Virus record (IMG/VR): IMGVR_UViG_3300042731_005935
Coordinates: 1 to 64,000 of that record
From: a virus
DNA: 64,000 nt
Direction: 5' to 3' (one strand)
Shown: piece by piece, positions 6,510-10,689 of the stretch
Position numbering within the stretch: position 1 is the first letter of the stretch
How the letters are laid out: the number at the start of each line of letters is the position of its first letter
Notes under the pieces: model-generated
Databases searched by the model: none
What the model was told of the DNA's origin: nothing
The model's input: only the letters and a program-made list of their open reading frames with translations
Position numbers and translations under genes: made by a program

Positions 6510-8123
6510 ATGCCTGAAGAAAAGAAACCGACCGGCAGCGGCGGAATGAAGAAACAACTTACCGTTGGTGATCTTATTGCAACTCATGAGTTGTACGACC
6601 AAAACGAAAGTGAATGGACATTCTTAACTGCCGTATATGAAGGGATTCGGGAAATTATTCGCCATGACCTCATTGAACGCCACGAACGCGAACCAATAAT
6701 CGCATACCAGCGGCGAATTAAAGAATTATTCAGTTTCGGTTATTCCAAGTCTGTAGTGGAGATATTCCATTTCTTTTTGTTTAAGAAAGAGCCAACTCAT
6801 AAACTCGGCAAATTATTAGAAGATAAACGCTGGAAACTCTTCCAGGAGGATGCTAACTTATATGGTATGGATTATAATGCTACCATCATGGAGATTGCAC
6901 TCTGGGCAGCAATACAAGGTCATATGGGTATTCTGGTAGACAAAGCGAATGCAGGATTCCAAACAGTTGAACAACAAGTCAACGCCAAGGTCTATCCGTA
7001 TCTTGCTAAGTATCACCCAAAGGCGATACTTGACTGGCAATGGGAACGTGATGAATACAATCGTCCGTACCTCTCCTATCTCAAATTGGAAGATGATGAT
7101 GGGCAATATCGTATTTGGGAGCCTGATCACTGGGAAATATGGGAGTTGCCAGAAGATAAAGATGGTAACCCAGATAAAAGTAGTGAAGGCGCCGATGCAG
7201 TATTTATTGATGCCGGCCCGAATCCAATTGGAATAATTCCTTTTATCTGGTTCTATAACCAACGGTCGAAAAAAGCTAACATTGGCAACTCCGATATCCA
7301 TGAAGTGACACGCATTGATCTTTCCATTATTCGAAGTATGTCTCAGATAGAGGAGACGATTTATTTTGCTGCATTCCCAATGATGCGAAAACCAATGCGT
7401 GATGCTAAACCAACGGAAATAAATTCTCCACAGCAGGACGATGAAGTTAGTGTTCAAACTGTGCTTGAATTCGATCCTGAACATCCTGAAAGTAAACCGG
7501 ATTGGCTTGATTCCGCAGTTGCCGAGCCTGTTCAAGCAACACTTAGTACAGTAAACAAGAAAATTGAAGAAATCTACCGGGCAGCAAATATTGGCGGTAT
7601 GGCAGCAACCGAACCGAGCAAATATCAGCAATCGGGAGTTGCCAAACGTATTGATTTCCAATTACTTAATTCCAAGATGGTATCGAAAGCGATTAACCTT
7701 GAGGACGCGGAGAACAAAATCCTTGAGCTTTGGTGCCGATGGGAGAATTTGTGGGATCATTATAAAAATGAATCAAAGATGGGTCGTGCCAAGACATTTG
7801 ATATTGAGGAACTTTCCACTACACTTGATGACGCATTAACCGCCAAGACGGTGGTTATCTCCAATCGCTTTAATGAATTACTTCAGAAACAAGTTGCCAG
7901 ACAGGTACTCCCAACAGCCACTGAACAACAGATGGTGGATATTGATAAAGAGATCGAAGCAAATGTCCAGAGAGAGACACCGACAGGAGAGAATATTCCG
8001 GATATCGATAACCCAGACCTTAAGCCCGGCGACCGTGACATTGTTAACAGCGGCACCTCTCCTGAAGAAACACCTACAGCCAGCGACAAGACTGGTCAAG
8101 TTCAACAGGGAGGTGAGGAGTAA
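6510..8123 (+). CDS. Portal protein
   Basis: 537 aa, after TerL and before the minor head protein; 'QQSGVAKRIDF' motif typical of SPP1-like portals. Confidence 0.9.
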   Translation: MPEEKKPTGSGGMKKQLTVGDLIATHELYDQNESEWTFLTAVYEGIREIIRHDLIERHEREPIIAYQRRIKELFSFGYSKSVVEIFHFFLFKKEPTHKLGKLLEDKRWKLFQEDANLYGMDYNATIMEIALWAAIQGHMGILVDKANAGFQTVEQQVNAKVYPYLAKYHPKAILDWQWERDEYNRPYLSYLKLEDDDGQYRIWEPDHWEIWELPEDKDGNPDKSSEGADAVFIDAGPNPIGIIPFIWFYNQRSKKANIGNSDIHEVTRIDLSIIRSMSQIEETIYFAAFPMMRKPMRDAKPTEINSPQQDDEVSVQTVLEFDPEHPESKPDWLDSAVAEPVQATLSTVNKKIEEIYRAANIGGMAATEPSKYQQSGVAKRIDFQLLNSKMVSKAINLEDAENKILELWCRWENLWDHYKNESKMGRAKTFDIEELSTTLDDALTAKTVVISNRFNELLQKQVARQVLPTATEQQMVDIDKEIEANVQRETPTGENIPDIDNPDLKPGDRDIVNSGTSPEETPTASDKTGQVQQGGEE

Positions 8124-8272
8124 TGCCTGCAGCATTTGATAGATGAGTAGCTAAAGGTGGCCGAGTTCGGACCAAGAAATTAAAAGGACGCAAATATCAA
8201 CATATTTGCTTTATTGGTGGCAAGAGTTATGTTGGTGAGGTAAAAACCAAGAAAGGGAAGAGGAGAAAATAA
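8123..8272 (+). CDS. Small basic protein with in-frame UGA at codon 8 (candidate selenoprotein)
   Basis: GGAGGT RBS and TAATG overlap with the portal stop. Reads MPAAFDR-UGA-VAKGGRVRTKKLKGRKYQHICFIGGKSYVGEVKTKKGKRRK and fills most of the gap to the next gene. Confidence 0.65.
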
Positions 8273-8297
8273 TAATGGCATCGGGAGAAATGTCATA

Positions 8298-9173
8298 ATG
8301 TCGAATCCTCGCCGTATAAGAACCGTAGCCGAAAGGACCGATAAATGGTTATTGGCCCGGCAGCGGAAACATGTCAAGATGGTAGAGAAAAGCGTGGAGA
8401 ACTTGCAAAACAAGATTATAAACTCCGTGCAAACACTCTCTACCAAGCGAGGACAGCTTGAAGGTGTGCGTGTAAATCTAAAGCAAGCTCAGAAAGTACA
8501 CAAGGATGTTATACGTCTTTTCGGTGATCAGTTCAGCCGTGACATGCGGCGTATGATTGATGACTTTAGTTCGGTGGAGAGTTTAATTGAATCGAGTTAT
8601 TCCTATTTAGGTGAGTCAGTAAAATTCACCGGGCTTGACCGTACAACTATGGACATTTTGAAAGATGGTTATTGGAGAGATTACTTGGCGATTGGTGATC
8701 AACAAAAAAATAAAGTTATCCAAGAGATATATAACCAAGTGATTGCCGGAGGAGAATTCTCTCAACTTGTTGGTTCGGTCGAGCAAGCACTCCTCGGAAG
8801 TAATCTTACCGGTGTGACCGGGCGCCCGCTTGTAGGCTATGCGCGCCTGTATGCCCGGGATATGATAATGAATTTCCATAATGAGGTGAATATAAAAAAG
8901 GCAGAAGAAATTAATATTAAACACTTTCTTTATGTGGGAGATATTATTGCCACCACCCGACAGTTTTGCAAGACCCGTGTGGGAAAGTACTACACAAAGA
9001 ATCAAATTCAATCATGGACTTACCGCTGGGCTGGTAAGAGCGGTCCCGCGTTCACTCATAGAGGCGGATGGAATTGTCGTCATCATTGGCAACCAATAAG
9101 ACCAGAATGGCTTGAGGGAAAGAAGAAATTAGATGTTGCCGATTGGAATCTTGAGAAAAGAGGGAATGGTTAA
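8298..9173 (+). CDS. Minor head/head morphogenesis protein (MuF/SPP1 gp7-like)
   Basis: Follows the portal; 'TRQFC...RGGWNCRHHW' motif. Confidence 0.85.
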   Translation: MSNPRRIRTVAERTDKWLLARQRKHVKMVEKSVENLQNKIINSVQTLSTKRGQLEGVRVNLKQAQKVHKDVIRLFGDQFSRDMRRMIDDFSSVESLIESSYSYLGESVKFTGLDRTTMDILKDGYWRDYLAIGDQQKNKVIQEIYNQVIAGGEFSQLVGSVEQALLGSNLTGVTGRPLVGYARLYARDMIMNFHNEVNIKKAEEINIKHFLYVGDIIATTRQFCKTRVGKYYTKNQIQSWTYRWAGKSGPAFTHRGGWNCRHHWQPIRPEWLEGKKKLDVADWNLEKRGNG

Positions 9174-9667
9174 TGAGACTTGATAATTTGACAGATGGAA
9201 GGGTTCATCCTTCGGATGGTGGTGTAAATGATCATCATGCTGCTCCGATTTCTGTTGATTTCATAAATACAACCCAATCCTTGCCACCCGGGACTTCGTA
9301 TAACCTTGATGTCTCTTTGGGTCGTGATGATTTTCGGTTCGCCCGGGTTATGATAATTGGACCGAATGATTCAGCAGGATTAAATTCTCCTTGGAAAGAG
9401 TGTGCCGAATTATTAGTGACCAGGGACTCTACCAAGGCTATGGGACATAGTATTTCGAACGCTGGTCAAAAGAAAGTTTATGCGTCCACTTATTCGAAGC
9501 AGAATTCGGATTCATATTTAACTCACAAGATTTTCAATGCTGGGGTCGGTGATTATATTGCCGTGGAAAATGCAGTATTAACCGGCAGTGTTCTTCGGTT
9601 AACCTTCCGAAGTTTTTACGGTGGCTCAATGACCCTGAATGTTCGGGGTCAAGCTTTGTTATGGTAG
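9173..9667 (+). CDS. Beta-rich putative virion protein, paralogue A
   Basis: N-terminal H...DHH motif and 'YSK..SDSYLTHKIF' shared with the next two ORFs. Confidence 0.7.
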   Translation: MRLDNLTDGRVHPSDGGVNDHHAAPISVDFINTTQSLPPGTSYNLDVSLGRDDFRFARVMIIGPNDSAGLNSPWKECAELLVTRDSTKAMGHSISNAGQKKVYASTYSKQNSDSYLTHKIFNAGVGDYIAVENAVLTGSVLRLTFRSFYGGSMTLNVRGQALLW

Positions 9668-9673
9668 GTGATC

Positions 9674-10165
9674 ATGAAACTTGATGCAAATAGAAAAATT
9701 ACTGACCATGATTTAATGACTGGTATTGGAGAAGATGATCACCATAACCGGGGAACATCAGTTAAGGTTTTGATCAACTCCCAGTCAATATCTGCTCAAT
9801 CTGCTTATGAAGTTCGGATCGATCTGGGAGCCAGTGGTTATCGGACATTCCGTGTTTTGTTACGGGGCAGTAGTAATGTTGATATCCAAGGTCACACCGG
9901 GGTTTTTGTAATTGCCGGCGGGGCAAGCGAAGATTGCTCCGGAATTGGGATTGAACCCTATGGAGCAGCAGAGTATACAATTTCATATATGGGGGCTTAT
10001 TCTCGGATTCACGGAGACTCTTATTTATCTCCGATCGGTACCTTCGGTACAAATATAGCATTACGGGATGCCTATATCGATGATAACGAGGCGGTCCTTG
10101 AATTTTATAATGCGTCAGTATCTACCCAGGATTTAAAAGTTTACGGGACATTAGTGGTGAAATAA
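9674..10165 (+). CDS. Beta-rich putative virion protein, paralogue B
   Basis: 'DHDLMTGIGEDDHH', 'YSRIHGDSYLS', 'IALRDAYI'. Confidence 0.7.
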   Translation: MKLDANRKITDHDLMTGIGEDDHHNRGTSVKVLINSQSISAQSAYEVRIDLGASGYRTFRVLLRGSSNVDIQGHTGVFVIAGGASEDCSGIGIEPYGAAEYTISYMGAYSRIHGDSYLSPIGTFGTNIALRDAYIDDNEAVLEFYNASVSTQDLKVYGTLVVK

Positions 10166-10689
10166 TGAGATTAAAAGAGTATAGGGAACATCCAGCAACA
10201 CATGCAGCTTTGTCTAATGTTGGAATCGATCAACACCATGATCGTCCAGAGAATATTGAGGTTTCTAATACTTCTCTATTGGTTTATCCATTGCCGTCCG
10301 GGCCTTATACATGGGATATATCGGTCCCTTTGAATGCTAAGGTTGTTAAGTTTTCTTTTCGAAGCAATCATACGGTCGCCGAGGGAGGTGGTAAAGCCGG
10401 AGTTCATGGGATAGCAACAAGAAATCAATTCGAAACAACTGTATTTTCTTTGGGTGGTCATGGCACAACTTCAATTACTTCTTACAATGCGGTTTATTCT
10501 AAAGTTGCCTCGGCTACGAATCTATCCCATAAGGTCTTTTCTCAAGCGGATACCGAAAGTGTCTGCCTAACAGATGCTTATCTAACATTAATATCTGGAA
10601 CCGAAAGAGTTCTCAGAACAATCTGGACAAATTATGGGGGATCAATTGAGACCCTGAATTGCTGGGGAGAGGTTCAGGTTATCGGATGA
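10165..10689 (+). CDS. Beta-rich putative virion protein, paralogue C
   Basis: 'HAALSNVGIDQHH', 'YSKVASATNLSHKVF', 'LTDAYL'. Confidence 0.7.
   Translation: MRLKEYREHPATHAALSNVGIDQHHDRPENIEVSNTSLLVYPLPSGPYTWDISVPLNAKVVKFSFRSNHTVAEGGGKAGVHGIATRNQFETTVFSLGGHGTTSITSYNAVYSKVASATNLSHKVFSQADTESVCLTDAYLTLISGTERVLRTIWTNYGGSIETLNCWGEVQVIG

Follow-up and report, generated by a model that had tools for sequence, protein, structure and literature searches.

The question raised by this locus is whether a reading frame that is interrupted after seven codons by an in-frame TGA is a selenoprotein gene encoded by a phage, with the UGA read as selenocysteine (Sec). The window, by which we mean the whole stretch of 64,000 nucleotides analysed here, comes from an uncultured wetland phage, and the frame in question adjoins the portal protein gene (Table 1). 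Gene callers find no gene at 8123-8272 and leave an apparent intergenic gap of 174 nt. An earlier note on this DNA had proposed that the gap is filled by a hidden gene with a GGAGGT ribosome-binding site and TAATG coupling to the portal stop, reading MPAAFDR, TGA and 41 further open codons with one Cys, and we find each of these elements in the sequence: the portal TAA (8121-8123) overlaps the ATG (8123-8125), the seven codons are followed by the TGA, and the 41 open codons, with their single Cys at position 29, run to a TAA at 8270-8272. With Sec inserted, the product has 49 residues and is basic. The note had also described the following gene as a minor head gene; a gene does start at 8298, but its identity rests on weak matches only (phrog_7625, E 1e-3; phrog_581, E 7.5e-3; Pfam Phage_min_cap2, E 0.17). 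Judging from the sequence and its relatives alone, we consider it most likely, with a good deal of confidence, that 8123-8272 is a phage-encoded selenoprotein gene; there is no experiment showing selenium in the protein.

Table 1. Features at and around the small gene, in window coordinates.
Feature	Position	Strand	Basis
Portal protein gene	6510..8123	+	phrog_145, E 3.4e-50; ORF list
Shine-Dalgarno-like GGAGGT	8109..8114	+	8 nt 5' of ATG; sequence
Small gene (putative selenoprotein), 49 codons plus stop, MPAAFDR-U-VAKGGRVRTKKLKGRKYQHICFIGGKSYVGEVKTKKGKRRK	8123..8272	+	translation
In-frame TGA, codon 8, candidate selenocysteine codon	8144..8146	+	aligns with the family's conserved Cys8
17-nt SECIS-like hairpin, 6 bp, bulged A8171, loop AGUU 8164-8167	8158..8174	+	same structure in 10/10 TGA forms
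Cys29 codon TGC, conserved partner of position 8	8207..8209	+	Cys in 10/10 TGA forms
Next gene, probable minor head / head morphogenesis protein (weak evidence)	8298..9173	+	weak profile matches

The window derives from a metagenome assembly, and phages with recoded genetic codes exist, meaning that the TGA could in principle be a sequencing or assembly error or a sense codon throughout this genome. With respect to error, a Logan contig from what is probably the source run shows the identical sequence at a depth of 15, and the TGA is unchanged in three other runs as well as at nine other loci. For the variant contigs from these three runs (two other studies), no difference is listed in either the TGA or the hairpin, and they differ at 8128, 8140, 8201, 8203, 8218, 8221 and 8232, mostly synonymously. 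One low-depth variant contig, from run X3 (depth 2), carries an extra nucleotide after 8125. This 1-nt insertion would disrupt the frame between the ATG and the TGA, and it could be an error or reflect a damaged copy. With respect to the code, TGA is an ordinary stop elsewhere in the genome, as the earlier note had stated: of 116 ORFs picked greedily on the phage contig, 25 end in TGA, and it terminates the same small gene in five of the nine other TGA loci. Since TGA serves as a stop elsewhere, any recoding is local, and we give next to no credence to either error or a TGA-as-sense code.

The read-through peptide belongs to a family of small proteins of phages that is widespread and without annotation, with 15 homologues among database proteins (E 2e-16 to 6e-5) and 445 cluster representatives matching the family profile at E ≤ 1e-3. 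Neither Pfam nor PHROGs holds a family for the small protein (best PHROG match among 16 family members, E 0.011), and a profile search of the PDB returned only a weak match (E 1.2e-3) to the repeated blades of the fucose-binding lectin 6htn, which we read as a shared beta-hairpin pattern and rejected as homology. For 7600-8800, the region around the gene, no DNA match was found among 50,697 phage records, and the homologue P0002 had no tblastn match in those records either.

What the homologues carry at position 8 bears directly on the Sec reading, and the suggestion in the earlier note that similar small phage proteins have Cys there is borne out by 14 of the 15 database homologues. In the gene set, which comprises 132 fetched loci plus the window and yields 116 distinct sequences (metagenome relatives being the best 80 of 194), codon 8 is TGT in 69, TGC in 37 and TGA in 10, i.e., Cys in 106 and TGA in the remainder. 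The 10 TGA sequences amount to about eight lineages and come from several independent assemblies. We thus observe what is asked of a Sec/Cys pair, a UGA aligned with a conserved Cys and conservation on both sides of it. Furthermore, positions 8 and 29 behave as a unit: both are Cys in 140 of 150 family representatives and both are Ala in 4 of the 150, and both Cys are also missing together in P0016. This joint loss fits the proposal that Sec8 works with the downstream Cys. Two protein calls, P0129 and P0139, begin only at codon 16. All 10 TGA forms retain Cys29, the start codon and a purine-rich SD-like motif upstream of it; the N-terminal M-P-x-x-F is kept as well, and the frame stays open for 36-57 codons past the TGA.

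These features also bear on the possibility that the TGA is a real stop, produced by nonsense mutation or used for programmed termination, the 41 codons behind it being in decay or not translated in this protein. Only a single base change separates TGT or TGC from TGA, and the failure of gene callers to find a gene here and the frame-breaking insertion upstream in the low-depth X3 variant would both agree with a dead frame. Among the TGA forms, though, codons flanking the hairpin have a saturated pS of 0.90 and a pN/pS of only 0.24, from which we infer that the codons downstream of the UGA are under purifying selection; upstream, in codons 2-7, pN/pS is 0.46 in TGA forms versus 0.50 in Cys forms. 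An open frame held at such divergence in 10 sequences (about 8 lineages), together with the retention of Cys29, start codon, SD motif and M-P-x-x-F, is not what a real stop predicts. Reinitiation offers no way out, with no in-frame ATG, GTG or TTG start in the post-TGA stretch (window sequence and ORF list), and a hairpin specific to the TGA forms would be left unexplained. We regard a real stop as very improbable.

The hairpin is the second line of evidence. The earlier note had described it as GGU-GG-CCG(AGUU)CGG-ACC, and these 18 nt are present at 8156-8173 as quoted, but the register favoured by ViennaRNA and RNAalifold is 8158-8174, with pairs U-A, G-C, G-C, C-G, C-G and G-C and a bulged A8171 between the third and fourth, instead of GGU/ACC pairing with a GG bulge. 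Invariant columns cannot separate the two registers. In the favoured register the hairpin starts 11 nt after the UGA and occupies positions 15-31 counted from U8144. Taken by itself, the window hairpin is no better than chance: the 17 nt fold at -6.1 kcal/mol and the 45 nt from the UGA at -6.9, and for 8135-8200 the minimum free energy of -11.4 kcal/mol corresponds to z = -1.28, with 22 of 200 shuffles folding as well. What makes the hairpin significant is solely the comparison with relatives.

That comparison separates the two forms of the gene clearly. The consensus structure has an energy of -6.1 or -5.4 kcal/mol in all 10 TGA forms, while the 106 Cys forms placed on it average +2.9, with only one reaching -4 (best -4.0); a stable 17-nt hairpin at positions 15-31 is accordingly present in 10/10 TGA genes and in 0/106 Cys genes. 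Counting pairs gives a similar picture, with three upper and at least two lower pairs in every TGA form versus 10 of the 106 Cys forms (Mann-Whitney, p 7e-6). RNAalifold recovers the same structure independently, and 98.1% of cells are paired in the consensus pairing versus 24-43% with the partners slid. The pair 8161-8170 covaries (C-G in five sequences, G-C in five, no breaks); it is the only pair to do so, and the others are partly fixed by the conserved amino acids GGRVRT. The loop is AGUU in 9 of the 10 TGA forms and GGUC in the tenth, with G22 and U23 invariant. In codons 12-17, which make up the hairpin, pS is 0.29 in TGA forms versus 0.80 in Cys forms, indicating, as far as substitution patterns can, that constraint on the synonymous sites of the hairpin is confined to TGA forms. 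The check on hairpin conservation proposed in the earlier note is therefore passed, with a compensatory change and with no stable hairpin in the Cys forms; its refuting case, a TGA unique to this genome with an unconserved hairpin, does not apply.

The number of independent events behind these 10 sequences is less certain. Mean identity among the TGA forms (8 lineages) is 64% outside the hairpin versus 89% inside it. The tree of the small gene (72 columns) is unresolved, with the Sec label taking 6 changes, and since so short a gene does not resolve, the TGA forms could still go back to one origin. By terL or portal, at least 6 of the 10 TGA sequences belong to relatives of the phage studied here, so that there are fewer independent events than 10. 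Neighbouring genes differ among the loci (195 neighbour ORFs fall into 119 clusters), and no upstream-gene tree was obtained.

Searches for known or further elements of this kind were uninformative. Rfam, scanned with 7900-8500 at E ≤ 10, yielded chance-level matches only (ylbH at 16.9 bits, Y_RNA, SorX) and no SECIS family, a result that says little, as bacterial SECIS elements are poorly modelled there. A crude scan of the phage contig for more ORFs with a UGA and a hairpin yielded 210 unfiltered candidates, none convincing; the strongest was rejected as a stop-start overlap, UGAAUG.

The hairpin can be set against published models. The bSECIS model (PMC13188914) has an apical loop 3-9 nt long, in which one or both of the first two bases are G and the next base is most often G or U, an upper stem of 4-16 bp and a minimum free energy of at most -7.5 kcal/mol. 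The 4-nt loops of the TGA forms (AGUU or GGUC) satisfy the loop rule, and the spacing from UGA to loop is within the model as well; it is 17 nt in every one of the 10 TGA forms (8147-8163 in the window). The stem has 6 bp in total, 3 above and 3 below the one-base bulge, and the available description does not state whether pairs are counted across a bulge. When 45 nt starting from the UGA are folded, the window (-6.9) and L015 (-7.2) miss the energy limit, and the remaining 8 of 10 TGA forms lie between -7.5 and -14.4; the 66-nt segment 8135-8200 of the window gives -11.4 and the 17 nt alone -6.1. The shape of the hairpin agrees with most of the published bacterial SECIS criteria. In Escherichia coli fdhF (PMC8659212), the 17-nt upper stem-loop spans positions 15-31, separated by 11 nt from the UGA, exactly where the phage hairpin lies, and the bases that SelB contacts are U17, bulged out of the 5' strand, and the loop bases G23 and U24. 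These contacts are not reproduced: the phage bulge is A28 on the 3' side and its loop GU is at 22-23, one position earlier, and the element is therefore not of the E. coli type in detail; E. coli SelB may fail to bind it. SECIS elements vary between bacterial lineages (PMC13188914).

The short stem and marginal energy could also point to a UGA read through without Sec, by a near-cognate Trp or Cys tRNA at low frequency and perhaps with help from the hairpin, so that full-length protein would be made in small, regulated quantity alongside the heptapeptide. A protein needed in few copies per virion could be supplied in this way, and one family representative (P0082) does have Trp at position 8. 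It is harder to reconcile with a UGA placed exactly on a Cys conserved in 106 of 116 sequences and lost jointly with Cys29, which argues that the identity of the residue matters, or with SelB-type spacing, loop size and loop GU, none of which is needed merely to slow a ribosome. We consider Sec-free read-through unlikely, though less so than a real stop, and prefer decoding as Sec.

Compared with bacterial SECIS genes such as fdhF, the small gene is alike in that its UGA aligns with a Cys of homologues, the hairpin lies directly 3' inside the coding sequence and the 4-nt loop has G followed by U and begins 17 nt from the UGA; as in bacterial selenoproteins, a nearby conserved Cys is the likely redox partner. 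It differs in being encoded by a bacterial virus within a head/packaging module and in specifying a basic protein of 49 residues with no recognisable redox fold or family. Unlike in fdhF, the UGA is the eighth codon, there are only 6 bp in the stem and the bulge is a 3' A instead of the 5' U17, and, measured against the bSECIS model, the energy is near or above the -7.5 kcal/mol limit. The only viral selenoproteins named in the available part of PMC8310308 are the poxvirus glutathione peroxidases (GPx) of molluscum contagiosum and fowlpox viruses. They share with the phage gene a viral Sec UGA that relies on host Sec machinery, and the fowlpox SECIS is likewise in the coding region; they differ in belonging to eukaryotic viruses, in being captured cellular GPx genes and in using a eukaryotic-type SECIS, whereas the phage gene has a bacterial-type hairpin beside the UGA and belongs to a phage-specific small family for which no cellular counterpart was found.

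A Sec-decoding host would be required, and the metagenomic bin that holds the phage contig has matches to all four Sec components over cut-off, including selA (624 bits) and tRNA-Sec (75 bits). Its selB match covers the N-terminal part (274 bits), with the C-terminal part on another contig, and its selD carries an in-frame TGA of its own, followed by a hairpin whose loop also starts 17 nt after the UGA. The phage contig closes into a circle of about 83.2 kb and is linked to the bin, whose contamination is 6.3%, only by binning; no spacer-like match, and none of at least 16 nt, exists between it and the bin's other 832 contigs, leaving no CRISPR-type host link. The matches to selA, selB, selD and tRNA-Sec are all on contigs other than the phage contig, so the phage is without Sec machinery of its own, and ARAGORN detects no tRNA in the window.

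On the Sec reading, ribosomes would start at the AUG at 8123, by translational coupling to the portal stop or via the SD motif at 8109-8114, and reach the UGA at 8144-8146 after seven codons. Host SelB carrying Sec-tRNA(Sec) and bound to the hairpin at 8158-8174, with its loop GU, would insert selenocysteine, and 41 more codons would be translated to the UAA at 8270-8272. The product would be a basic protein of 49 residues that contains Sec8 and Cys29. No RNA data set was listed as containing the stretch, and this scheme is drawn without evidence on expression. That SelB and Sec are the decoding agents is inferred, selenium incorporation being untested. We also infer that Sec8 and Cys29 act together, in a selenylsulfide/disulfide or at a shared metal site.

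With respect to function, a 45-residue domain of this family, with both Cys, occurs at the N-terminus of some prohead proteases (matched by the family profile at E 1e-11 to 1e-12), fused to Mu-like_Pro (PF10123) in P0144 and P0156 and to Peptidase_S78 in P0134. These fusions carry Cys, while in the window the domain is free-standing after the portal gene and TGA replaces the first Cys codon. Fusion to head maturation proteases places the domain in head assembly, and this, together with the position of the gene in the terminase/portal module, is why we infer that the small protein acts there. A more far-reaching scenario, which we put forward tentatively and think somewhat less probable than its negation, is that in wetland, salt-marsh and sediment phages a small head-assembly family switched its first Cys to Sec in several lineages, evolved its own minimal 17-nt SECIS and, through host SelB and tRNA-Sec, builds a Sec8-Cys29 selenylsulfide or a Se-ligated metal site into a component that acts within or on the procapsid.

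A literature search, outside the scope of which lay subscription journals and supplementary files, found no description of a phage selenoprotein, and the words phage, virus and viral are absent from the main text of two 2026 papers on prokaryotic selenoproteomes; family lists in supplements, those of BSepDB and of the reviews among them, could contain entries that stem from phages. Selenocysteine has been treated as a trait of cells; a phage Sec gene family would mean that phages exploit the recoding machinery of their hosts, with UGA-containing genes of this kind being systematically missed by gene callers. The 17-nt hairpin would be among the smallest natural SECIS elements and as such useful for engineering. 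The Sec/Cys pair marks functionally critical residues and thereby points to Cys8/Cys29 as the site at which an otherwise uncharacterised family with 445 cluster representatives does its work. If the Sec reading is true, production of the small protein would depend on the selenium supply of the host, and phage fitness could depend on selenium availability in anoxic sediments. Should the tentative procapsid scenario also hold, the gene would encode a phage selenoprotein of a structural module that is not an enzyme, and virion production would depend on the selenium status of the host.

The reading frame behind the portal gene that the earlier note had proposed is confirmed in the sequence, with its start, in-frame TGA, 41 further codons and stop. 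The ATG of the small gene overlaps the portal stop (TAATG), and the frame runs through MPAAFDR to the TGA. Because the frame is interrupted by the TGA, contains no ATG, GTG or TTG 3' of it, and is followed by a listed gene that starts only at 8298, a 174-nt gap appears under the standard code. The gene behind this gap shows only weak matches to head morphogenesis or minor head PHROGs (E 1e-3 to 7e-3), and the only one of the three tandem ORFs after it that was tested, 9173-9667, has no Pfam or PHROG match.

Positions of features in the window and in the bin that holds the phage contig
Feature	Position	Strand	Remark
Portal gene	6510..8123	+	phrog_145, E 3.4e-50
GGAGGT	8109-8114	+	precedes ATG 8123-8125
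Portal stop TAA	8121-8123
Small gene	8123..8272	+
Codon 8 (TGA)	8144-8146
Hairpin	8158-8174
Small-gene stop TAA	8270-8272
Apparent gap	8124-8297
Next listed gene	8298-9173
Three tandem ORFs	9173-10689		~165 aa each
selD, locus L150	G000:C224:6342-7268	-	one in-frame TGA, motif VKGSG-U-ASKLG

As for the hairpin, the 18 nt quoted in the earlier note (8156-8173) are present, but the fold is unremarkable on the window sequence alone: the segment 8135-8200 has an energy of -11.4 kcal/mol (z = -1.28), which 22 of 200 shuffled sequences equal or better. Taken alone, the observation could be chance.

A protein search with the read-through peptide, in which Cys was substituted for the UGA residue, yielded 15 matches of only 46-76 aa (E 2e-16 to 6e-5), of which 14 align with Cys at both positions 8 and 29 and the fifteenth (P0016) lacks both. 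Since TGA forms cannot be called by gene callers, the DNA of 49 loci on viral contigs, the best 80 of 194 relatives on metagenome contigs and 3 loci on genome contigs was fetched. The small gene is present in all 132 loci and in the window, giving 116 distinct 150-nt sequences within this sampling, with TGT (69), TGC (37) or TGA (10) at codon 8, the position at which the earlier note had proposed looking for Cys or UGA in homologues. The TGA forms (the window, L014, L015 (=L085), L022, L046, L076, L077, L103, L106 (=L115) and L124) come from several different samples and assemblies; because L103 matches L124 exactly through nt 93 and L015 shares 94% identity with L106, we count about eight TGA lineages.

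A profile of 101 family members (A3) matched 445 cluster representatives with an E-value cut-off of 1e-3, of which 160 also pass 1e-10. Among the 150 best representatives, positions 8 and 29 are both Cys in 140 and both Ala in 4, with single losses being rare (G,C in 2, W,C in 1 and C,S in 1) and 2 calls starting at codon 16. This joint loss suggests that residues 8 and 29 act as a pair. In one representative, P0082, position 8 is Trp, whose codon TGG differs from TGA by a single base; the gene calls of P0129 and P0139 begin only at codon 16, as expected had the caller restarted past a hidden TGA.

Other assemblies and the use of TGA as a stop contradict the view that the TGA is an error or a sign of a different genetic code. 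A Logan contig (24,930 nt, depth 15.4) from the probable source run shows zero differences across 7800-8600. The TGA and the hairpin are also covered in three further runs (salt marsh and wetland, two other studies) by contigs of related variants, for which the stretch 8141-8200 has no listed change; these variants differ at 8128, 8140, 8203, 8218 and 8221, all synonymous in the small-gene frame, and nonsynonymously at 8201 (His27 to Tyr) and 8232 (Val37 to Ala, the family consensus). A 269-nt contig from another wetland study (run X3) carries a C inserted after 8125, which, if real, would leave start codon and TGA in different frames; the contig's depth is only 2, and the insertion may stem from misassembly or mark a broken gene copy. 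The TGA is not an assembly error. Across the whole phage contig C1, TGA ends 25 of 116 greedily chosen ORFs, which bears out the earlier note's statement that it is an ordinary stop elsewhere. Because the small gene itself terminates with TGA at normal length in five of the nine other TGA loci, the TGA at position 8 is read through and one about 40 codons later is obeyed. The recoding is local and does not reflect a different genetic code.

Conservation of the hairpin among TGA homologues, which the earlier note had left to be checked, holds in all ten. Their codons 12-17 (G G R V R T) are near-fixed (GGT 9/GGG 1, GGC 5/GGG 5, CGA 9/CGG 1, GTT 9/GTC 1, CGG 5/CGC 5 and ACC 10), and the 106 Cys forms use every synonymous codon here, including AGA/AGG for Arg. 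Numbered from the U of the UGA, MFE and RNAalifold agree on lower pairs U15-A31, G16-C30 and G17-C29, a bulged A28, upper pairs S18-S27, C19-G26 and G20-C25, and a loop at positions 21-24. Pair 18-27 shows compensatory change, being C-G in five and G-C in five TGA forms with zero breaks, and the observed covariation score was reached by 2 of 500 shuffles; 98.1% of cells pair, against 24-43% with the 3' partners slid by 1-3 columns. Consensus-structure energy is -6.1 kcal/mol in nine TGA forms and -5.4 in one, and averages +2.9 in the 106 Cys forms (best -4.0). All three upper and at least two lower pairs can form in 10/10 TGA forms versus 10/106 Cys forms, and the hairpin is specific to the TGA forms. 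Four Cys forms (L041, L026, L069 and L012) keep weakened hairpin codons (GGT GGT CGA GTT CGR ACY), with consensus-structure energies no better than -4.0, and may represent remnants or forerunners of a Sec/Cys switch.

Mean pairwise identity of the eight TGA lineages is 64% outside and 89% inside the hairpin, and the conservation of the hairpin does not stem from close kinship of the TGA forms. By Nei-Gojobori counting, the TGA forms have a synonymous difference of 0.29 in the hairpin codons and of 0.90 in the codons flanking them, and the hairpin codons of 30 sampled Cys forms have 0.80. Synonymous constraint is thus confined to the hairpin and to genes with TGA, as predicted for an RNA element needed for decoding the TGA. 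In the nine other TGA loci, of which one is cut by a contig end, the frame is open for 36-57 codons past the TGA, and pN/pS in codons 9-11 and 18-31 is 0.24 in TGA forms and 0.34 in Cys forms (codons 2-7, 0.46 and 0.50). Cys29, a start codon (ATG 9, TTG 1) and an SD-like motif are each retained in 10/10 TGA forms. These patterns indicate that the frame beyond the UGA is translated in TGA forms. Both the selection data and the recurrence of the TGA contradict a nonsense allele, and a decaying one is unlikely because the frame, Cys29, start and SD-like motif are kept across saturated synonymous divergence.

According to PMC13188914, bacterial SECIS elements have a loop of 3-9 nt with at least one G among its first two bases and mostly a G or U next to it, a UGA-to-loop distance of 16-37 nt, an upper stem of 4-16 bp and an MFE <= -7.5 kcal/mol. 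The phage hairpin meets this model in loop length (4 nt), loop sequence (AGUU in nine forms, GGUC in one, with G22 and U23 invariant) and UGA-to-loop distance (17 nt); its upper stem is 3+3 bp around the bulge, and the MFE of 45 nt is -6.9 for the window, -7.2 for L015 and -7.5 to -14.4 for the other eight TGA forms. Its 17 positions (15-31, starting 11 nt from the UGA) coincide with those of the Escherichia coli upper stem-loop described in PMC8659212. That element bulges at U17 and has G23/U24 in its loop; the phage hairpin instead has a 3' bulge (A28), and its GU lies one position earlier. It would work like a minimal bacterial SECIS and is not of E. coli type in detail. The only serious rival, not excluded without experiment, is read-through of the UGA independent of selenocysteine (Sec), which leaves unexplained why the UGA is placed on a functionally paired Cys and does not account for the SelB-type hairpin geometry. 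Sec insertion at the UGA through the hairpin, as the earlier note interpreted it, is supported by comparative evidence only, and we consider it likely.

The bin with the phage contig, G000 (833 contigs, 85% complete, 6.3% contaminated), encodes selB (N-terminal part, 274 bits, on C42; C-terminal part on C423), tRNA-Sec (75 bits), selA (624 bits) and selD (364 bits). Downstream of the selD UGA lies a 9-bp hairpin; 17 nt separate its loop, GUC, from the UGA, as in the phage hairpin, and selD is itself a predicted selenoprotein gene. The window corresponds to C1:2297-66296. C1 is 83,343 nt long and the 100 nt at its start are repeated from position 83,166, at the contig end, so it is a circularly closed phage genome of ~83.2 kb and not an integrated prophage. 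Its GC content is 40.0% versus 41.7% for the whole bin, and no match of at least 16 nt, hence none spacer-like, links it to the other 832 contigs. The Sec machinery is consistent with a Sec-using host without proving one, phage and bin being linked by binning only, and host identity remains an inference.

The nearest terminase is from an uncultured Caudoviricetes (52% identity). The small gene follows the portal gene in the window and L046, just precedes it in L076, and follows the large terminase gene in L015/L085, L115, L103 and L124; in most other phages unrelated genes adjoin it. No family assignment of the small protein was found in Pfam, PHROGs or PDB, and tblastn with a natural homologue gave zero matches in 50,697 deposited phage genomes. 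A full-text literature search found no description of a bacteriophage selenoprotein; the only viral selenoproteins named in the available part of a recoding review (PMC8310308) are the molluscum contagiosum and fowlpox glutathione peroxidases, and "phage", "virus" and "viral" do not occur in the main text of either a 2026 review (PMC13188914) or the paper on BSepDB (PMC13326102). What appears new here is a putative bacterial-type Sec gene that is phage-encoded, in a new, very small protein family, with a minimal SECIS.

In longer representatives the 45-residue domain forms the N-terminus of head maturation proteases. Among the fusion proteins examined (P0065, P0144, P0156 and P0134), P0144 and P0156 match Pfam Mu-like_Pro (E 1e-20 and 9e-27) and phrog_328, and P0134 fuses the domain to Peptidase_S78; further single cases involve DUF6582 / phrog_16160 and a deformylase fragment. 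The architecture of the Mu gpI-like or S78 prohead protease and DUF6582 fusions is in neither Pfam nor PHROGs. The function of the small protein is inferred: we tentatively propose a small basic domain in or on the procapsid, with a Cys8-Cys29 disulfide or shared metal site, although the spatial proximity of the two residues is unconfirmed. If this reading of the Cys pair is true, the TGA forms would have a selenylsulfide or a selenium ligand instead.
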